DNA of 32,000 nt from Candidatus Nanohalobium constans (lineage in GTDB: Archaea > Nanohalarchaeota > Nanosalinia > Nanosalinales > Nanosalinaceae): assembly GCF_009617975.1 (NCBI RefSeq), contig NZ_CP040089.1, positions 60,001-92,000 on the forward strand, given 5' to 3'. The notes under the pieces are model-generated. The model saw only the letters and a program-made list of their open reading frames with translations. It had not been told where the DNA came from and made no database searches. This document shows positions 1-8,152 of this stretch, piece by piece; position 1 is the first letter of the stretch, and every line of letters begins with the position of its first letter. The translations under genes and the position numbers were made by a program.

Positions 1-843
1 GGTGGTGTAGACGGATTCCCCATCTGCATCAACGCAGACTCAGCAGAAGACATAATAGAACATGTGGAGAGAGAAGCACCGACATTTGGCGCGGTAAACC
101 TGGAAGACATCAAAGCACCCAGATGCTTCAAAGCAGAAGAAGAGCTGAAAGAAAAACTGGATATTCCGGTATTCCATGATGATCAGCATGGAACAGCTAT
201 TGTAGTAGGGGCAGCTCTTAGAAACGCTCTAGAACTAGCTGACAAGGATTTAGAGGATTCTAGAATCGTTATCAGCGGTGCAGGGGCAGCAGGCATCGCA
301 GTAGCCAATTTTCTTCTAGAGTCGGGAGCTGAAAACATTGTGCCGGCTGACTCATCAGGAATACTTAGAACAGAGGATGAAAACAGCTATAAGGCAGATC
401 TCGCTGAAAGAACACTGGCTTCGGAAGAGGAAGGAGACTTAGAGGATGCAATGGAGAATGCGGATGTATTCATAGGGCTTTCAGCTCCAGGAATAGTCTC
501 TCAAGAAATGGTTGGGTCAATGGCGCAGAAACCAATTGTGTTTGCGTTAGCTAATCCGGATCCTGAAATATATCCTGATGAAGCCAAGGAAGCAGGGGCT
601 TTCATCACAGCTACCGGTAGATCAGACTTTGACAACCAAGTTAATAACTCTCTGGCATTTCCAGGTGTTTTCAGAGGTGCACTCGATGCTCGTACATCGG
701 AAATAACTGAGGATATGAAGATAGCTGCATCAAATGTTATCAAGGAATTTATTGACCCTGAGAAGGATAAGATTGTGCCTGAGACATTGGATAAGGAACT
801 GGCTATGGAAATTGCTGACAAGGTTAGGGAGGAAGCTGACTAA
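1..843 (+). CDS. NAD(P)-dependent malic enzyme, C-terminal part (5' end lies outside the window)
   Basis: Frame 1 is open from base 1 (GGVDGFPICINAD... precedes the listed GTG at 64). Rossmann motif ISGAGAAGIAVANFL. FALANPDPEI and ATGRSDFDNQVNNSLAFPG are typical of the malic enzyme NAD-binding half. Confidence 0.9.
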   Translation, partial: GGVDGFPICINADSAEDIIEHVEREAPTFGAVNLEDIKAPRCFKAEEELKEKLDIPVFHDDQHGTAIVVGAALRNALELADKDLEDSRIVISGAGAAGIAVANFLLESGAENIVPADSSGILRTEDENSYKADLAERTLASEEEGDLEDAMENADVFIGLSAPGIVSQEMVGSMAQKPIVFALANPDPEIYPDEAKEAGAFITATGRSDFDNQVNNSLAFPGVFRGALDARTSEITEDMKIAASNVIKEFIDPEKDKIVPETLDKELAMEIADKVREEAD

Positions 844-1168
844 CTTTATACCTCCATTCCCCCTCTTCGGCACCTTTATTATGTGCACATGCAGCTCTAG
901 AGGAGGTAACTATGTCGCTGCCGCCGTCGTAGTCTATCTGTATCTCCCATCGACCTAAAGGCTTTTCCACATAAACTATTTCTTCTACATCGTAACTTTC
1001 CAAATTTTTGGAAATGTAATCACGATCTATGTTTACTTCGGTAACATCTCCCCGAATTGAGAAACAATCCACATTTTTACTTTGCAGAACTTCTTCTAGA
1101 CGTTCTAACCCTTCAAGCTCTTCCCTATCATAAAACAAGGCTTCCAACCGGCTCCAGACTGAGTCCAT
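824..1168 (-). CDS. hypothetical acidic protein (114 aa)
   Basis: ORF with acidic composition like its neighbours. A TATA-like ATTTTAGAG is centred about 25 nt upstream of the ATG. The 3' end overlaps the malic enzyme stop by 20 nt (convergent). No recognisable domain. Confidence 0.5.
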   Translation of the reverse strand: MDSVWSRLEALFYDREELEGLERLEEVLQSKNVDCFSIRGDVTEVNIDRDYISKNLESYDVEEIVYVEKPLGRWEIQIDYDGGSDIVTSSRAACAHNKGAEEGEWRYKVSQLPP

Positions 1169-1255
1169 AACTCTAAATACGGAAAAACTCTAAAATCATT
1201 TGCCTATCTATTCAGTTATCCAACTATTTTTAGCTTTCTATCATAAACTCTCTTC

Positions 1256-2140
1256 ATGGAAGACAAAGTAAAACAAAAATACGTCAACGCAGGTAAAGTC
1301 ATACAGAAGGCTCGAAGGCACGCCAGAGATATAGCCGAGCCAGGAACTAACTATGAAACAATTGCTGAAGAAATTGAAGGACTGATTAGGGATGAAGGTC
1401 TAGAACCAGCTTTCCCCGTCAATCTCTCAACTAACGATCGGGCGGCTCATTACTCACCCGAAACTTCTGAAGAAAGAGTTTTGAAGGAGTCTGATGTCCT
1501 TAAGATTGATATAGGAGCTCACTGTGAGGGATACATCGCAGATACTGCTTTGACAGTCAATACTTCTGGAGAATATGACGAGATGATTCAAACAAATAGG
1601 GAGGTTCTTCAGGCAGCTTTAGACTTCCTAGAACCAGGAGTAACGGTTGGAGAGCTTGGAACTCACATCCATAACCAGGTGCCTGATGAATACAGCGTTG
1701 TCAGGAACTTGACAGGTCACTCTTTAGATAAGTTTACTCAGCACGCTGGTCTTTCCATCCCTAACATCAGGAATTCGGATGAAACAGTTTTTGAAGAAGG
1801 TGATGCTGTTGCTATCGAGCCTTTCCTAACCAAAGGCAGTGGTAAGATAAAGGAAGGTAAGAAAGGAAATATTTACCTTCATCAGGGTGGTAATGTCCGT
1901 GGTAGGACTGAGAGACAGTTGTTGAAGAAGATAAAGAATTTTAATGGGTTGCCGTTCAGTTCTCGCTGGCTTGATATGAGCGGTAGAGAGAAGATGGCTT
2001 TGAAGAAACTGGTCCAGAGCGGCGCTGTCAAACACTATCCGGTCCTGAGAGAGGTAGATAAGGGAGTGGTAACTCAGGCTGAGCATACAGTTCTTGTTGG
2101 TGCTGATGACGGGGAAAATATTGTTACGACGAGGGAATAG
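1256..2140 (+). CDS. map: methionine aminopeptidase, type 2 (archaeal/eukaryotic class)
   Basis: Metal-ligand motifs are in the canonical order: LKIDIGAHCEGYIADTA (D, D), NLTGHS (H), AIEPF (E), AEHTVLV (E). AFPVNLSTNDRAAHYSP matches archaeal MetAP. Confidence 0.93.
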   Translation: MEDKVKQKYVNAGKVIQKARRHARDIAEPGTNYETIAEEIEGLIRDEGLEPAFPVNLSTNDRAAHYSPETSEERVLKESDVLKIDIGAHCEGYIADTALTVNTSGEYDEMIQTNREVLQAALDFLEPGVTVGELGTHIHNQVPDEYSVVRNLTGHSLDKFTQHAGLSIPNIRNSDETVFEEGDAVAIEPFLTKGSGKIKEGKKGNIYLHQGGNVRGRTERQLLKKIKNFNGLPFSSRWLDMSGREKMALKKLVQSGAVKHYPVLREVDKGVVTQAEHTVLVGADDGENIVTTRE

Positions 2141-2627
2141 AACAGGTTTTAGGGTTTCCTAAGCTGCTCAATGCGTAGAGCATTAATATTATTCCGCCAA
2201 CTTTGATTCCTAGTCCGTTAAAAGGTAGTGCTGCGGTAGCTGCTCCAAGCCCTATTATGCTGGCAAATCCTACGCCGCAAGAAGCGCAGCCGGCTGCTAA
2301 AAATCCGGGCAGTATGCTCAAACTCTCTTTTCTAACTCCTACATTTCTAAACTGGATCATGGTGTTTGTCAATGTTATTCCACCCAAAAATGCGTATATG
2401 ATGGTTATTGGAAAGTTTAGTATTCCTTTCATCTTTATGCTGGCATATGAGTTAAGTAAGGCGTCTAGAACTCTTCCTTGCCGCAATGTCTCTAAGTGCC
2501 AGTAGACATCGGTGCTGATCAGCATCAGTCCTAGAAAAGAAAGAGTAAATAAGAGGGAAATAAGAGCAGTCCTCCAAGTATCAACGGAAGACTTTACTGC
2601 AATAACTATCTGATCTAGGCGACCCAT
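2124..2627 (-). CDS. about 4-TM membrane protein with an intramembrane CxxC (GCASCG) and one C-terminal Cys
   Basis: Four hydrophobic segments. The only cysteines are C-A-S-C inside predicted TM3 and one in the tail (KTCSIPSS). The start overlaps the stop of the upstream DsbA-like gene by 13 nt (ATGGGTCGCCTAG). Confidence 0.7.
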   Translation of the reverse strand: MGRLDQIVIAVKSSVDTWRTALISLLFTLSFLGLMLISTDVYWHLETLRQGRVLDALLNSYASIKMKGILNFPITIIYAFLGGITLTNTMIQFRNVGVRKESLSILPGFLAAGCASCGVGFASIIGLGAATAALPFNGLGIKVGGIILMLYALSSLGNPKTCSIPSS

Positions 2628-3547
2628 GAATCTCTGAATTCGTACAGCTTATCGTGGAATTTCCAGTAAAGTTCATCTCCCTGCTCCTGAACGCAGTTGG
2701 CAGCCTGATGAGCAGTACCAGAGTTTCTGTGAGCAGGATAATCCTTGTAAATGAACTCTACCTCTCCCGTACTCACATAGTTCTCCTTAAGCTGGCTCCA
2801 AGAGTTCCTCTTATCTATATCTCTTGAAGGAATGGCATCAAAGCCAGCCCACTCCGCACACCATGGGCATGCAAAGTCTGAAACCTCTATAACTCTGATA
2901 GAGGCATCGCTTTCACCTTTAGAAGGCTCATCATCTAGACTCATGTTTTCCAAGCTGTATTCGTCGCTTTCAACCGTATCGCTGGAAGATTCTGCCTCGG
3001 AAAGCTGCTCCTCGATTACAGGCTGCATGCTGGAGAAAGGCTGTGCGCCTTCAAGCTTCTCAAAACCTGTCTCCGAGTTACCAATTAGGAATGTAGGGGT
3101 GCCAACTCTGCCTAGCGCGCTGCTAGCCTCATTTCTATCCTCTACAGCCTCAGATCCATCTGCTGAGTTCATACAGCTTGCGAACTCCGACTTGTCCGCA
3201 CCAACTTTACCAGCTATCTCCTCCATAACTTCGCCAGGACTCCCAGAAATCTGGGTCGGAGACTGTTCGCCCTCAGAATCATCTGATGTAGTGTCCAAAG
3301 AACCTGTAACCTGGTTAAAACTGATGCCAACAGCAAAACCTAGTGCCAGTCCAACGACAAGCGCACCGATTCCAAACTGGCTTGTTGTTAAAGTAATTCC
3401 GTTTCCAGTATGGTTGTCTTCTTCAGCATCTCTGGAACCTCCGTTTTCAGTATTTTTTTCGTCTTCTTCGTGTGTCTGGCTTTGGTGAATGTGAAGTCCT
3501 CTTTCGGTATCAAACTCTTCTCCACATTCGTCGCATTCATAACTCAT
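2615..3547 (-). CDS. membrane-anchored DsbA-like thiol:disulfide oxidoreductase with an N-terminal C2H2 zinc finger; thioredoxin-fold halves in swapped order
   Basis: C2H2 spacing in CDECGEEFDTERGLHIHQSQTH (C-x2-C-x12-H-x4-H). One TM helix (FGIGALVVGLALGFAVGISF). A DsbA C-terminal-type segment (VGTPTFLIGN, cis-Pro loop) precedes a DsbA N-terminal-type segment (VSDFACPWCAEW ... YKDYPAH ... LYWKFHDKLY). Confidence 0.8.
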   Translation of the reverse strand: MSYECDECGEEFDTERGLHIHQSQTHEEDEKNTENGGSRDAEEDNHTGNGITLTTSQFGIGALVVGLALGFAVGISFNQVTGSLDTTSDDSEGEQSPTQISGSPGEVMEEIAGKVGADKSEFASCMNSADGSEAVEDRNEASSALGRVGTPTFLIGNSETGFEKLEGAQPFSSMQPVIEEQLSEAESSSDTVESDEYSLENMSLDDEPSKGESDASIRVIEVSDFACPWCAEWAGFDAIPSRDIDKRNSWSQLKENYVSTGEVEFIYKDYPAHRNSGTAHQAANCVQEQGDELYWKFHDKLYEFRDSWVA

Positions 3548-3582
3548 ATATGGTACAGAATAGGACAGTATTGAATAAAAGG

Positions 3583-3620
3583 AAAGGGGGTTATTCCCTC
3601 CGTCAGTTAAGAAAAAGAAT
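3583..3620 (-). terminator. candidate terminator downstream of cdc48 (oligo-T run followed by a weak hairpin)
   Basis: The minus strand reads TAA...CCATTCTTTTTCTTAACTGACGGAGGGAATAACCCCCTTTCC. It has a T5 run (A-run 3612-3616 on plus) and a short imperfect hairpin. Confidence 0.3.
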
Positions 3621-3636
3621 GGACTTAGAAGATGCT

Positions 3637-5904
3637 TTAGGCGTAATAATCAGGCTGGTCGTCTTCTTCCTGGTCGATGTTGTTCATCTTCTGCGCCATC
3701 TTCCTGTACATCTCCCGATTCTCATCTGTGGCGGTAGCTCGTACATCCTCCAAGGCGTCCTCAAAGTCTTCCATTGTTGCTTCTTCACTTTCTGGATCAC
3801 TTCTCAAAGCGTTCATGCCTGCTTCACGACATACAGATTCGATATCTGAACCAACATAGTTCTCTGTCTTCTCAGCAAGTTTATCGATGTCGACATCATC
3901 GTTCAGAGGCATGTCTTCCGTGTGTACTTCGAAAATTCTCTTTCTTGCATCCTCATCTGGTATCTCAACTTCGATGTTTCTATCGATTCTTCCAGGACGC
4001 ATAATTGCCGGATCAATCATATCAGGTCGGTTCGTTGCTGCTATAACTGTTACTCCTTTCAATGATTCGATTCCATCGAGCTCTGTGAGTAGCTGGTTTA
4101 CTACTCGGTCTCCTACCTGTGAGTCTCCGCTGCTGCCGCCTCTACGCGGTGCTATCGAGTCAATCTCGTCGATGAATAGTACGCATGGTGCGACCTGCCT
4201 TGCTTTCTTGAAGATTTCTCTGACGGATTCTTCTGATTCTCCTACGTACTTCGAGAAGACTTCGGGTCCTTTGATGGAGATGAAGTTTGCGTTGGCTTCG
4301 TTTGCTACTGCTTTGGCGAGCAGAGTCTTTCCTGTTCCTGGCATTCCATACATTAGGATGCCTTTTGGTACTTCGATTCCCATGTTTTCGAATCTTTCTG
4401 GGTACTTCTGCGGCCATTCAACCATTTCCTGAAGTCTTTCTTTGGTGTCGTTGAGCCCTCCGACGTCTTCCCAGGTGACCTGTGGTACTTCAACCATTAC
4501 TTCACGCATCTGGCTTGGCTCGACATTTCTCAAGCCGTCCAGCATCGCATCTTCGTCAACTACCAGCTTCTCCAGTACTTCGCTTGGTATTTCTTCGTCC
4601 ATGTCTATTTCAGGCAATACATTTCTTAAGGTGGACATAGCTGCTTCCTTACACAGCGCTTCCAGGTCTGCCCCCACATATCCGTGTGTCAGGTCTGCTA
4701 TCTCATCTAAATCCACATCGTCTGCAAGAGGCATGTTTCTGGTGTGGATCTGGAGCACTTCTTTTCTTCCTTCTCTATTTGGTACTCCGATCTCGATTTC
4801 TCTGTCGAATCTTCCGCCACGCCGCAGTGCTGGGTCGATTGCTTCTGCACGGTTTGTTGCAGCTATGACGATGACGTTCTCTCTTGATTCTAAGCCATCC
4901 ATTTCTGATAGTAGTGTGGCGACTACTCTTCTCTCGACTTCTCCGCCTGCGTCACCTCTTTTTGGTGCGATTGCGTCGATTTCATCGATGAATATAATCG
5001 ATGGTTCGCCTTCCCGTGCTTCTTCGAACTTTTCACGGAGTTGTTTCTCACTTTCTCCGTAGTACTTGGACATTATCTCCGGTCCGTCGATCGATAGGAA
5101 GTTTGCATCTGCCTCGTTCGCAACTGCTTTAGCTAGGAGCGTTTTACCTGTTCCTGGCGGTCCTTGGAGGAGTACTCCTGATGGTGCGTCTATTCCGAGT
5201 TGTTGGAAGACTTCAGGATGTTTTAGAGGTAGTTCGATCATTTCTCTGACTTTTTGTACTTCTGATTCCAGTCCTCCGATGTCTTCGTAGGTGACCTCCG
5301 GTACTCTGACCTTTTGTTCGGTTTCCTTGACGGCTTGTTCTTTCATCTTGATTTCTGTGTTCTCTGTTATTTTGACCGGTCCTCTTGGCTTGGTCTTGAC
5401 GACTCTTAGTTTGAGTTCTGAGAAGTTGAATCTCATGTTGTCTGTCATGCCTTCAAACATGTCGTCGAAAAGTCCTCTTGGACGGTCCTGGGCATCGGGG
5501 ACTATTATGTCTCCTCTGATTACTGGGCGTCCGTTTAATCCTCTTTTCAGCATGTTTGGGTCGCTTACTTGCATTACTACTCCTTCTTCTGCAGGTGCAA
5601 GTGTTATCTGGTCTGCTTCTTCGAGTTCTGCTGGTTCTACTTCTACATGTTCCCCCAGTGAGGTTCCGGCGTTTTTCCTTGTGTAGCCGTCCATTCGTGC
5701 TATTCCGAGTCCTTTGTCCGCAGGGTAGCTTCTTGCTGCTCTTCCTACGGTTTCCCGGTTTCCTTCTATCAGTACTGCGTCTCCTTCCCGTACTCCTAGT
5801 TCTTCCATGATTTTGCTGTCTATACGAACGATGCCTTTGCCGACATCCTGTTGTGCGTTCGGAGGAACTTCTCCTACACGCAGTTTTACGCTATCTTCTC
5901 CCAT
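3637..5904 (-). CDS. cdc48: CDC48/VCP-type AAA+ ATPase
   Basis: N-terminal CDC48_N-like domain ([21 protein letters not shown]). Two AAA+ modules with Walker A GPPGTGKT / GMPGTGKT and Walker B IIFIDEID / VLFIDEID. The C-terminus ...PDYYA is HbYX-like. Confidence 0.96.
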
Positions 5905-5928
5905 TTTTGTGTTTTCACCATTGTAGCA

Positions 5929-6276
5929 TTATTTTTCCAGTTCTCCGTTGTTATCATCGTTTCTAATCTTTTCCAGGATTTCCTTGTCGTCTATCATCAC
6001 TGTAAATATGTGGTACGAAATCTTTGGCTCCCACTCTGTGAAGTATTCCCTCGCCTTATCCGTTTGCTTCTTGGCGATTATGAATACTGAGTCATCTATA
6101 CGGATGTTAGGAATCTCGTCCATTAAACCATCTTTGTCATACTCGTAAGTCTTCCCATTCTTCTTCACAGTCTGCTTATACCCAAAAAGCCCTCTATAGA
6201 ACTTGTTCCTCTCATAAACCGAATCAAAATTCTTCTTCTCAGTAGAATAAGTCAAGAGCGAAGCAGGTTCAGACAT
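5929..6276 (-). CDS. hypothetical small Lys-rich protein (115 aa from the second ATG; 130 aa if started at 6321)
   Basis: ORF directly upstream of cdc48 on the same strand. A TTTTTAAG TATA-like box about 32 nt upstream of ATG 6276 lies inside the longer ORF and favours the shorter start. Composition is less acidic and GC is lower (about 38% on one sampled line). Confidence 0.55.
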   Translation of the reverse strand: MSEPASLLTYSTEKKNFDSVYERNKFYRGLFGYKQTVKKNGKTYEYDKDGLMDEIPNIRIDDSVFIIAKKQTDKAREYFTEWEPKISYHIFTVMIDDKEILEKIRNDDNNGELEK

Positions 6277-6390
6277 TGCATAACAACAATAAACAGGAAT
6301 ACTTAAAAAGTTTTTATGCATGTCAACAAAAAAGTTTCCTAGAATTGTTTTTCACTCAGTGATAAAAGATTTCCACAGCAAATCCAGAAT

Positions 6391-7089
6391 GTGAAGCCGA
6401 ATATAGAGAGAGTCTCCACAGGCTGCGAAAGCATCGACCAACTGTTGAACGGAGGGTTGGAGAAAGGCATCGTCAACAATGTCTACGGCGAATCCGGCTC
6501 AGGAAAGACAAACCTCTGTATTCAGGTAGCGGCCCAGGTAGCTGAGAAAGGAGAGAAAGTAGCATACATCGACACAGAAGCAGGCTTCTCCTCGGAAAGA
6601 TTCCTGCAGATTTCTGACGAAGAAGCACTGGAAAATATACTGATCAAAGCACCAACAACCTTCGAAAAACAGGAAGCAGCAATCGAAACACTGGAAGAGA
6701 CAGTCAAAGACCAAGAAATCAAACTAATAATCGTTGATTCAGCGGTCTCACTCTACAGATTGAAGGTAAACGGGGACAATGCTTCAGAGATAAACAACCA
6801 GCTCTCGGGCCAGCTCTCAGAACTTACTAAGATCGCCCGAGAACAGAATATTCCTGTGCTGATTACAAACCAGGTCTATACAAGCTTTGACGATGGTGAC
6901 GAATTCGAACTAGTAGGAAGAGATGTGCCTAAGTACTGGAGTAAATGTCTTCTCAAGCTCTCTGACAAAGGTAAGAACCTGCGGCAGATGGAAATTTCCA
7001 AACACCGCTCGCTTCCAGAAGGAAAGAAGATTCAGTTTGAGATAACGGATAACGGTCTGGAAGAGACAAGTGAGAAAAGCCTCTTCTAG
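6391..7089 (+). CDS. radB: DNA repair and recombination protein RadB
   Basis: RecA-fold with Walker A GESGSGKT and Walker B-like LIIVDS. The size (232 aa) and the absence of an N-terminal HhH domain fit RadB rather than RadA. GTG start. Confidence 0.9.
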   Translation: MKPNIERVSTGCESIDQLLNGGLEKGIVNNVYGESGSGKTNLCIQVAAQVAEKGEKVAYIDTEAGFSSERFLQISDEEALENILIKAPTTFEKQEAAIETLEETVKDQEIKLIIVDSAVSLYRLKVNGDNASEINNQLSGQLSELTKIAREQNIPVLITNQVYTSFDDGDEFELVGRDVPKYWSKCLLKLSDKGKNLRQMEISKHRSLPEGKKIQFEITDNGLEETSEKSLF

Positions 7090-7096
7090 CAAACAA

Positions 7097-7105
7097 TTTA
7101 TAAAT
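7097..7105 (+). promoter_or_regulatory. TATA-like box TTTATAAAT
   Basis: Near-consensus archaeal TATA, with 22 nt between it and ATG 7128 (centre about -27). That ATG opens a 14-codon ORF, MKSASIIGGHVLQY. Confidence 0.35.
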
Positions 7106-7361
7106 CTAAACTCTAGAGATATAGATTATGAAGTCCGCATCAATTATTGGTGGACACGTTCTGCAGTACTAATTCAGTAGTCTCAACTATATCTAAAGTT
7201 TCAACACAGATTTCTCAACTTTCTCAATCATCCAGTTCAACATTCGATTCAGTCTCAGTATCTATCTCAATTATCCTACTGCTGATTCTGACACTGCTGC
7301 TGTAATAGGCGCAGTGTTCACTTCTCGTTTTCTTGAATTCTATTTCAAGGTGAACACATCA

Positions 7362-7442
7362 ATGCAACACAAATACAACACAACTAACGCAATAGATATG
7401 TACAAAACCGTAGACACAGCTGTAAAAGGAGGTGAAAGATGA
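7362..7442 (+). CDS. candidate 26-codon upstream ORF (MQHKYNTTNAIDMYKTVDTAVKGGER), translationally coupled to the 7439 gene
   Basis: AGGTGA lies 8 nt upstream of ATG 7362. Its TGA stop (7440-7442) overlaps ATG 7439 as ATGA. Its last codons contain the GGAGGTGA SD of the downstream gene. Confidence 0.3.
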   Translation: MQHKYNTTNAIDMYKTVDTAVKGGER

Positions 7443-8086
7443 TGGCGTCAGATCAATATCGGAGCAGAGATGAAGTAGATGAAAGAGTAAGGACTGGTGC
7501 TAGGGAATATGAGGCTATTCATGGTGAACGCCCGCCAACAAATCCGAATGAGGCAGTAAGCACTAAGAATTCGTCTCCTACAGAGCACCCGGTAGAATCC
7601 ATAATGGATGATGCAGAAATCGGAGTTGCTGCTCTTTTAGACTCAGAACCTGAGGATGAAAGAATAGTAGCTGACGGCGGTTTTGAGTATCAATTAGGTT
7701 ATGAATCGGCAGATGATGTAGAGCGCCTTCAACAAAAAGCTGCTAATTATGAAGACCTGGATGTCCAGGAACACGGAGATGGAGTTATAGTTAGAGGACC
7801 GCATTCTGAAGTCAGAGAGTTCAGATCTGAGTACCGACAGTCTTTCGGCGCCCTTGATCCAGATAAGAAGAGAGATATGAGAAGTAAAAAGGTGGCAGCA
7901 GATGGTTCGGGGCTAAGAACTACTATGAGGGATGTGGACCATGGAGGTTCTGAAGAGGTCCAGTCTGTAATGGAGAGAGGGTCGGATTATACTGCTCCCG
8001 ATGTAGTAGGTACTTCCATGGGCTCGTATGAAGATGAAGGAGAGGCAACTGAAGTTGTTGATCCAGAAGGAGTAATGGGAATGTAG
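7439..8086 (+). CDS. hypothetical acidic protein (215 aa)
   Basis: Strong SD: AAAGGAGGTGAAAGATG. Acidic composition like its neighbours. No domain recognised. Confidence 0.65.
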   Translation: MMASDQYRSRDEVDERVRTGAREYEAIHGERPPTNPNEAVSTKNSSPTEHPVESIMDDAEIGVAALLDSEPEDERIVADGGFEYQLGYESADDVERLQQKAANYEDLDVQEHGDGVIVRGPHSEVREFRSEYRQSFGALDPDKKRDMRSKKVAADGSGLRTTMRDVDHGGSEEVQSVMERGSDYTAPDVVGTSMGSYEDEGEATEVVDPEGVMGM

Positions 8087-8152
8087 AAAATCCGAAGGCA
8101 ATCGGGAGATCCTTTTTAAATTCTTCTTTCTTATTTTCAGTTATGAGTTCGG

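Follow-up and report, generated by a model that had tools for sequence, protein, structure and literature searches.

The locus described here raises the question of how a disulfide-exchange enzyme comes to be encoded with the two halves of its catalytic domain in reverse order. It lies in a stretch of 32,000 nucleotides (nt) from Candidatus Nanohalobium constans (contig NZ_CP040089.1, positions 60,001 to 92,000 of the forward strand), which is called the window below, and comprises a DsbA-like gene and, directly downstream, the gene of a small membrane protein (Table 1). The organism, strain LC1Nh, is an aerotolerant, sugar-fermenting DPANN archaeon with a closed chromosome of 43.2% G+C and without respiratory complexes; the metabolic figure of the paper that describes it names "Dsb, disulfide bond formation", with nothing on topology (PMC7443923). 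That the DsbA-like domain is a true circular permutation is fully supported. The protein is very probably a type-II membrane-anchored, extracytoplasmic thiol-disulfide oxidoreductase of the DsbA/BdbD/MdbA (Thioredoxin_4) kind, with a single, circularly permuted catalytic domain whose order would have arisen by tandem duplication; it is probably recycled by the partner encoded next to it. We infer its topology and catalytic role, the role of the partner and the mechanism of origin from the comparisons that follow.

In canonical DsbA-like proteins the half with the CxxC comes first and the half with the cis-proline (cis-Pro) loop last, an order that the window protein does not follow. In Pfam, Thioredoxin_4 scores 73.6 bits (cutoff 23.2), its best stretch placing residues 207-308 on model positions 5-93 of 165, and DSBA scores 36.2 bits (cutoff 25.6), its best stretch placing residues 106-174 on model positions 123-186 of 191. 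Our own profile hidden Markov model (HMM), made from 73 canonical relatives and 181 positions long, matches residues 101-183 with model positions 98-180 (E-value 2.9e-25) and residues 205-309 with model positions 1-94 (E-value 1.6e-36); the canonical profile is covered exactly once, in swapped order, without overlap or loss. As profile matches, these swapped-order E-values are far beyond chance. An earlier note on this DNA, made from the sequence alone, had expected two partial matches with late model positions at residues of about 100-185 and early ones at about 215-310, and they were found about where it had placed them. Two complete, independent domains, which the same note had named as the contrary outcome, are ruled out, each half of the profile being used once.

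Pairwise comparisons agree. With seven close canonical relatives, BLASTP gives two swapped-order high-scoring segment pairs in all except P0014 (labels of this form and of the form L001 are ours), in which the first pair extends as a single long alignment with gaps, held in place by the zinc finger and transmembrane (TM) helix that both proteins have. Against the canonical P0018, residues 152-310 match 28-188 and residues 101-183 match 191-273. When the P0018 domain is doubled, residues 101-310 align unbroken across the junction of the copies, with a score of 556 versus 353 for a single copy. The same swap is found by phmmer with the solved DsbA of Corynebacterium diphtheriae (PDB entry 4PWP), where residues 198-290 match 60-141 and residues 99-187 match 156-243. 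The window protein stops at …RDSWVA, while canonical relatives go on with …RDAWTAGGAGNTTATF… into the segment that stands at the start of the window domain; in the doubled P0018 alignment the canonical chain runs on as …RDAWTAGGAGNTTATFLDIAADNGGD…, that is, as the window domain's beginning …SGSPGEVMEEIAGKVGAD…. With the stop codon at the break, this alignment bears out the claim of the earlier note that the protein ends exactly where a canonical domain would continue.

Along the chain the motifs read …FASC125…G-T150-P151-TFLIGN…GAQP…, then …VSDFAC227PWC230AEW…YKDYPAH…AANC285…YWKFHDKLYEFRDSWVA and the stop codon. The first half (residues 101-183) holds helices a4-a6, the cis-Pro loop G149-T150-P151-T152-F153, strands b4 and b5, the last helix and the invariant C125, and the second half (residues 205-310) holds strand b1, the active site, helix a1, strand b3, helices a2-a3 and the invariant C285, ending with the residues given above. 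By homology the protein is a member of the DsbA-like/Thioredoxin_4 group (PF13462, PF01323), with a non-canonical topology.

The same order recurs in other organisms. A protein-database search gave 15 permuted-order proteins, 39-69% identical over a full-length alignment, plus close canonical relatives; C227, P228, C230, T150, P151, C125 and C285 are invariant in these 15. In a scan of one genome per species, ten further permuted genes were found in the species-representative genomes. Nine of them belong to Nanohaloarchaea or hypersaline metagenome-assembled genomes (MAGs; L009-L016, L025), and the tenth, L023, to an unrelated, AT-rich uncultured archaeon. In the survey of homologues that had been advised, the permuted ones thus number at least 25; they come from independent assemblies and are 39-83% identical. 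Canonical genes occur in many Nanohaloarchaea, among them Ca. Nanosalina VS9-1, Nanosalinarum J07AB56 and strain M3_22. A canonical DsbA-like gene of nanohaloarchaeal type is also found in a MAG labelled Salinivirgaceae bacterium (L021, contig JAWOEM010000229.1), probably through a binning error.

The protein has every catalytic hallmark of DsbA-like proteins, all of them conserved, and the relatives that match it best are oxidases working outside the cytoplasm. The chain would begin the fold with helix a4, in the helical insert, pass through the cis-Pro loop, strands b4 and b5 and the last helix, cross a junction of about 21 residues formed by the old C- and N-terminal tails, and then run through strand b1, the CPWC active-site helix and strand b3 to end after helix a3. 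Catalytic geometry, with the CPWC facing the Thr-cisPro, is expected to be as in an ordinary DsbA, and disulfide exchange with secreted or surface proteins would therefore be expected to take its usual course. A single TM helix after a 57-residue hydrophilic N-terminus that carries a zinc finger implies an N-in/C-out orientation with an extracytoplasmic domain: the finger and the acidic linker would be cytoplasmic, the helix would act as an anchor, and the permuted domain would work on secreted or surface proteins.

A second invariant cysteine pair, C125 and C285, is present in the helical insert, one residue in each permuted half. It recalls the second disulfide of Wolbachia alpha-DsbA1, to which it may be equivalent; the PDB title of entry 3F4T names the C97A/C146A mutant. 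If it forms a structural disulfide, the pair would link the helices at the new N-terminus with those at the new C-terminus. As to the direction of the reaction, we lean towards an oxidase.

The protein encoded downstream is annotated as hypothetical by the database sources. Its ATG overlaps the stop of the DsbA-like gene by 13 nt, an overlap that is conserved, and its gene stands directly downstream of the DsbA-like gene in 26 of 28 nanohaloarchaeal loci, whether the form is permuted or canonical, as it does in one archaeon outside this group. In 30 homologues A111, C114-x2-C117, G126, P135 and C162 are invariant, and many of them end in a second CxxC. From hydrophobicity and the positive-inside rule, in our own reading, the CxxC lies within the third TM helix and C162 in the cytoplasmic tail. 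This arrangement of cysteines suggests a thiol relay across the membrane. Linkage and cysteines make the family-less CxxC protein a candidate redox partner, which, co-transcribed with the DsbA-like gene, probably recycles the enzyme instead of DsbB or VKOR.

Pfam and NCBIfam searches with the window partner, and Pfam searches with the 30 family members, gave no family match, and a Foldseek search of the PDB with an AlphaFold2 (AF2) model of the partner (predicted local distance difference test, pLDDT, 74.6) gave nothing with an E-value below 6. An assignment to DsbB or VKOR was rejected for want of a profile or PDB fold match and for its three conserved cysteines, against four essential ones in two extracytoplasmic pairs. 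CcdA or DsbD_TM was rejected likewise, with no match in the 30 members and with the CxxC in one helix, against one cysteine per TM repeat. Quinone-coupled recycling of the DsbB/VKOR type is moreover unlikely because the host is without respiratory complexes (PMC7443923).

The same permuted fold might serve a different chemistry, in which the domain is kept reduced and acts as a reductase, an isomerase or a metal (Cu)-handling protein like ResA, DsbC or ScsC, while the downstream CxxC protein imports electrons from the cytoplasm, as CcdA, DsbD and ScsB do. The CxxC inside a predicted TM helix and the conserved C-terminal cysteine in a tail that is cytoplasmic by the positive-inside rule would suit such a role, as would the presence of DsbG, ScsC and DsbP among the lower-ranked Foldseek matches for the window domain and of a weakly DsbD_TM-like gene two genes upstream in a third type of locus. 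We nevertheless consider it unlikely, although it is the alternative that survives best: the closest relatives in sequence and structure are the oxidases BdbD, Wolbachia alpha-DsbA1 and C. diphtheriae DsbA, a dimerisation domain like that of DsbC or DsbG is missing, and the partner has no detectable similarity to CcdA or DsbD.

Permuted and canonical genes were compared in their genomic context. Two types of locus are conserved. Locus 1 has the order small open reading frame (ORF), CDC48, DsbA-like gene, membrane protein of 167-172 residues, MetAP (convergent) and malic enzyme; it is permuted in the window, L001, L002, L025 and L009 and canonical in L005, L019, L024 and L018. The synteny CDC48, gene, partner, MetAP is kept in independent assemblies. 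Locus 2 has the order HxlR (divergent), DsbA-like gene without finger, membrane protein of 176 residues and small membrane ORF; it is permuted in L007, L010-L012, L015 and L016, and L013 and L014 have the gene pair with partly different flanks. Its canonical form is found in L020, L047, L061 and L028, and likewise in L022, where HxlR was not detected. The third gene of locus 2 (132-140 residues, membrane) gives weak matches to the HMM of the partner family, with E-values of about 1e-3 to 2e-4, and is possibly a diverged paralogue.

In de-permuted alignments the permuted locus-2 proteins are 78-79% identical to the canonical locus-2 protein L061 and 48% identical to the window protein, whose own nearest canonical relatives stand at 50-53%. 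A bootstrapped neighbour-joining tree separates the two locus groups (91%), with little resolved within them. Outside these groups, L023/P0163, P0164 and P0174 are permuted, have canonical nearest neighbours at 48-65% and lack a close permuted relative. By synteny, the permutation took place in situ and more than once; read most simply, the data call for at least five independent permutations, all at one loop.

A single permutation, with the nested canonical forms produced by reversion, gene conversion or horizontal transfer, appears improbable. All permuted forms do break within the same six or so model positions, both nanohaloarchaeal groups end in …W-M-A-G, and bootstrap values inside the nanohaloarchaeal clade are low, as a single origin would allow. 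Such a history would still need repeated events, since a reversion is itself a second permutation event, and it fits poorly with locus-2 permuted proteins that are far closer to the canonical protein of their own locus than to the permuted proteins of locus 1 (78-79% versus 48%), with flanking genes conserved, or with the position of L023, P0164 and P0174 among canonical proteins of non-halophiles.

How the order was changed can be read at the junction. In the window protein this segment consists of the canonical C-terminal tail (…EEQLSEAE), a few residues and the canonical pre-domain segment (…YSLENMSLDDEPSKG…). At locus 2, the canonical L061 ends in …RFEEAFETVESE and the stop codon and has its domain start at …EESGSDLVSLDGIDLEDEPSKG…, and the junction of the permuted P0016 reads …RFEEAFKTVENAE-SSDTEMVSLEGIELEGEPSKG…. 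P0016 ends in …RRDQWMAG, where L061 runs on as …RRDSWMQSGDGDTDETF…, and its domain begins with …SGSQTPEDTF…; the window protein is built likewise with respect to P0014 and P0018. Large proteins with two to about ten tandem DsbA-like domains are common among the relatives (P0069-P0136 and others). In an exhaustive HMMER search the motif order NCNC is found in 25 of 149 representatives and NCNCNC in 11 of 149, with up to about ten domains. Three tandem domains are present in L027 (Aenigmatarchaeota, 3572-5656) and L041 (Woesearchaeota, 3422-5446). Residues of about 105-309 of the window protein align in one stretch across the domain boundaries of these tandem-repeat relatives.

A junction made of an old C-terminal tail and an old pre-domain segment, together with the tandem relatives, fits permutation by duplication. 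The sequences are best explained by an in-frame tandem duplication of the DsbA-like domain after which both outer halves, the first N-half and the last C-half, were lost. The process would have been repeated in archaeal DsbA-like proteins, always at the a3/a4 loop, probably because this loop tolerates free termini. The proposal of permutation by duplication, already made in the earlier note, thus draws support from a junction built of the old termini, a stop at the break and tandem-repeat relatives. CNC and NCN motif architectures do occur among the database representatives, but those read as possible half-domain intermediates, P0137 and P0155, resemble N-terminally truncated gene calls and are unconvincing; no trustworthy half-truncated intermediate was found, nor any direct tandem-repeat intermediate inside Nanohaloarchaea.

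AF2 was run on the window protein as a monomer, with an alignment of the 15 permuted homologues. The model contains one compact alpha/beta domain with the element order a4-a5-a6-b4-b5-a7, junction, b1-a1-b3-a2-a3. Block means of the pLDDT are 83-97 over residues 101-310, with one 10-residue block (241-250) at 70, and the predicted TM-score (pTM) is 0.69 even with some 95 residues in disorder. Over residues 29-95 the model is disordered or of low confidence (pLDDT below 50), and the finger region adopts a beta-beta-alpha pattern, also at low confidence. The CxxC is located at the start of helix a1, with C227-P-W-C230 following a strand of residues 217-223, and the invariant G149-T150-P151 precedes a strand of residues 152-157, as the predicted cis-Pro loop before b4. 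The predicted helical insert is made up of helices 274-287, 291-303 and 305-309 plus 104-114, 119-128 and 132-145.

When the model is compared with the PDB by Foldseek, the canonical DsbA-like structures 3EU3, 3F4R and 4PWO align over about 100 columns only, at 1.7-2.8 Å. The sole full-length match among the DsbA-family hits is 1UN2, over 217 columns, with a TM-score of 0.56 (target-normalised) and a root mean square deviation (r.m.s.d.) of 7.0 Å; its PDB title is "circularly permuted CPDSBA_Q100T99: preserved global fold". To place its termini, E. coli DsbA, with the landmarks C30, C33, T99, Q100 and P151 as expected, was aligned to our profile. Its T99 and Q100 correspond to model positions 93 and 94. 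The natural permutants stop at 94-95 and begin again at 92-99, so nature and the laboratory opened one and the same loop of the helical insert, a3/a4. By prediction, the fold closes into a single DsbA domain with the topology of the engineered permutant. The single closed domain of thioredoxin type that had been anticipated was thus obtained, as a prediction, in the high pLDDT and the full-length match to 1UN2.

It could be that the half-domains do not refold within one chain and that what is left is the decayed remnant of two domains, active only as a domain-swapped dimer or oligomer or without function. AF2 was run on the monomer only, and the r.m.s.d. of the 1UN2 superposition is high. We hold this to be very unlikely in view of the high pLDDT over both halves of the monomer model, its pTM, a junction that is long at about 21 residues, the strict conservation of the catalytic residues among permuted homologues, and the title of the engineered equivalent as preserving the global fold; the engineered protein reportedly made do with a 5-residue linker. 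A mis-assembly, frameshift or gene-calling error that fused two DsbA genes, the 3' part of the first to the 5' part of the second, the artefact against which the earlier note had cautioned and for which nothing speaks beyond the tandem DsbA genes of relatives (L045) that could a priori yield chimeras, is ruled out for practical purposes by the homologue survey and the conserved synteny, with sequences that do not all trace to one assembly pipeline error, a gene on a published closed chromosome, a single uninterrupted ORF that has an N-terminal anchor and a stop overlapping a conserved next gene, and no leftover half-domain upstream or downstream.

Several points weigh against the reading as a whole. 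Sequence cannot tell an oxidase from a reductase or isomerase, that is, it does not give the direction of electron flow. The partner's three conserved cysteines, with the CxxC apparently in mid-membrane and C162 apparently on the cytoplasmic side, look more like a relay of the CcdA or MerT style than like an oxidase of the DsbB style. The evidence for domain closure and for the CPWC/cis-Pro geometry consists of AF2 confidence and Foldseek scores, including a match at the r.m.s.d. given above, and the count of independent events rests on neighbour-joining trees, pairwise identities and synteny, with bootstrap values of 15-60% at deep nodes. In its fullest form, with at least five natural permutations (in two paralogous nanohaloarchaeal loci and three non-halophilic lineages), each at the loop of cpDsbA_Q100T99, and with the family-less CxxC neighbour as the missing recycling partner, be it a DsbB/VKOR analogue or a CcdA-like relay, the reading is put forward tentatively.

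The cytoplasmic part of the protein has a history of its own. Its N-terminal pattern, Y3-E-C5-DE-C8-GEE-F12-DTERG-L18-HI-H21-QSQT-H26, corresponds to C5-x2-C8-x12-H21-x4-H26, fits a classical C2H2 finger and is conserved in 11 finger-bearing permuted homologues; the finger and single TM helix described in the earlier note are read in the sequence as it had them. Pfam zf-C2H2 (PF00096) scores 16.6 bits, below its cutoff of 25.2 (E-value 0.011); a single finger rarely reaches a whole-protein cutoff. With phmmer the finger matches the designed or human C2H2 proteins 2I13 and 2YTO, the whole-sequence E-value of 4.5e-6 for 2I13 being a sum over six repeats, each individually sub-threshold. In P0134 (1654 residues), the window finger region (residues 2-38) matches about 20 separate stretches, that is, a poly-C2H2 protein.

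The finger-TM module is also borne by canonical DsbA-like proteins (P0014, P0015, P0023, P0024, L019, L024, L073), L073 (3743-4531) being a finger-TM-canonical DsbA in a non-halophile. It is absent from many permuted proteins (P0012, P0013, P0016, P0021, L010-L016) and from all locus-2 genes. In P0017, P0020, P0022 and L009 (3773-4810) a different N-terminal domain takes its place. This replacing cytoplasmic domain, of about 55 residues with the pattern …DYxxLxxxTVDEVKEYV…ERLLxHExxxKDRxTLxxWL…, precedes canonical and permuted DsbA-like domains, and the cytoplasmic heads therefore seem swappable. The module heads unrelated extracytoplasmic proteins as well, in Nanohaloarchaea and in other DPANN-like archaea (P0030-32; L023, 4160-4846; L072, 5015-5752); those of L023 and L072 share a 'G-P-x-G-S-x-H-I-H' domain and adjoin a DsbA-like gene. 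No second finger-TM protein was found in the window.

This distribution rules out a finger specific to the permuted or the redox protein. As far as sequence comparison goes, the finger-TM module predates the permutation, is independent of it and is recurrent in DPANN archaea, so the view that a classical finger opposite a redox domain is unusual has to be given up. The transmembrane link from redox state to nucleic-acid or protein binding that the earlier note had hinted at is likewise unsupported, because the module is also found on canonical DsbA proteins and on unrelated proteins and is missing from many permuted ones. A single finger with an acidic linker would seem ill suited to recognising specific DNA sequences; contact with proteins or a part in biogenesis appears likelier. 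The N-terminal C2H2 finger would be a separable cytoplasmic module.

Table 1. Features of the DsbA-like locus. Positions refer to the window, except in the last row, where they refer to the loci named.
Feature	Position (nt)	Strand	Residues	Basis and remarks
DsbA-like gene, complete ORF	2615..3547	-	310 in all	stop codon 2615-2617; ORF list, Pfam, homologue and own-profile searches
TATA-box-like element TTTTATT	3574..3580	-		27-33 nt upstream of ATG; sequence reading
C2H2 zinc finger	3470..3541	-	3-26	ligands C5, C8, H21, H26, consensus F12 and L18; presumed cytoplasmic; Pfam, conservation, phmmer
Acidic linker, predicted disordered, cytoplasmic	3377..3469	-	27-57	low pLDDT; poor conservation
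Single TM helix	3317..3376	-	about F58-F77	invariant G66, G70, G74; sequence, homologue alignment
Extracytoplasmic low-complexity tether	3248..3316	-	78-100	homologue alignment; AF2
C-terminal-half segment of canonical DsbA-like domain	2999..3247	-	101-183	own HMM, Pfam DSBA, AF2 pLDDT 86-97
Insert cysteine, first half	3173-3175	-	C125	invariant
cis-Pro loop	3089-3103	-	149-153	
Junction linker, 21 residues	2936..2998	-	184-204	doubled-sequence alignment; canonical relatives
N-terminal-half segment of canonical domain	2618..2935	-	205-310	own HMM, Pfam Thioredoxin_4, AF2 pLDDT 84-96, one block 70
Active site CPWC	2858-2869	-	227-230	
Insert cysteine, second half	2693-2695	-	C285	invariant
Candidate redox partner, about 4 TM helices	2124..2627	-	167 in all	ORF list; homologue searches
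Third gene of locus 2	L007 4645-5067; L011 5113-5556; L012 5173-5577; L016 5188-5631			

The TATA-box-like element, at this distance from the ATG, suggests that the DsbA-like gene is served by a promoter of its own and that its mRNA has no leader or almost none. The surroundings (window 1-8100) are ordinary housekeeping genes, namely a malic enzyme fragment, MetAP, CDC48 and a RadB/RecA-like ATPase, and no signs of mobile elements were found around the DsbA-like gene in this part. The window has a G+C content of 43.8%.

The window protein is a novel form within an enzyme family that is already known and does not represent a separate type of system. Natural circular permutations with close unpermuted relatives are, to our knowledge, rare, and natural permutants are useful for learning what the connectivity of a chain does to its folding, secretion and stability. 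In the present case sister lineages carry permuted and canonical forms at one and the same genomic position, tandem relatives are extant and the break falls at a laboratory site, which together support the permutation-by-duplication model and suggest that laboratory tolerance maps may predict where evolution cuts. The orthologous permuted/canonical pair at 78-79% identity would be a natural experiment on connectivity and folding in a secreted redox enzyme. For sequential aligners and domain annotators, permuted proteins appear as two partial matches or as "DsbA", their topology unmentioned, and structure searches that assume sequential order see half of the domain only. The CxxC membrane neighbour is a concrete candidate for recycling a disulfide enzyme in DPANN archaea without a respiratory chain. 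In the full-text literature no report of a natural DsbA permutation or of the partner family was found, only engineered DsbA work and a remark that thioredoxin-like folds include permuted members.

Among known systems, the closest in topology is cpDsbA_Q100T99 (PDB entry 1UN2), from the random-permutation study by Hennecke, Sebbel and Glockshuber (1999) as cited in PMC13552848 and PMC3281007. It shares the fold, and its new termini, in the a3/a4 loop, are the same. However, it is man-made and soluble in the periplasm, its linker is short and synthetic and its active site is CPHC, while the window protein is membrane-anchored and halophilic, has CPWC and a junction of about 21 residues derived from its own old tails, and is 14% identical to it by structural alignment. 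The best relatives belong to the membrane- or lipid-anchored Thioredoxin_4 proteins of Gram-positive type, namely BdbD of Bacillus subtilis (3EU3), C. diphtheriae DsbA/MdbA (4PWO/4PWP) and Wolbachia alpha-DsbA1 (3F4R), which share the CPxC, the Thr-cisPro loop and the helical insert. They have the canonical order, each aligning to one half of the window domain at a time, and their partners are BdbC/DsbB or VKOR, neither of which was detected adjoining the window gene. The canonical nanohaloarchaeal relatives (Ca. Nanosalina sp. VS9-1, L019 and L020; a MAG, L061; P0014-P0022) have the same anchor, partner and neighbourhood and, at locus 1, the same finger. Their identity with the window protein is 48-53%, and domain order is all that sets them apart. 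The tandem-repeat DsbA proteins (L027, L041 and the representatives with 2-10 domains) contain, internally, the C-half to N-half order of the window protein, but keep complete flanking halves; holding that order, they are the kind of intermediate that the duplication model requires.

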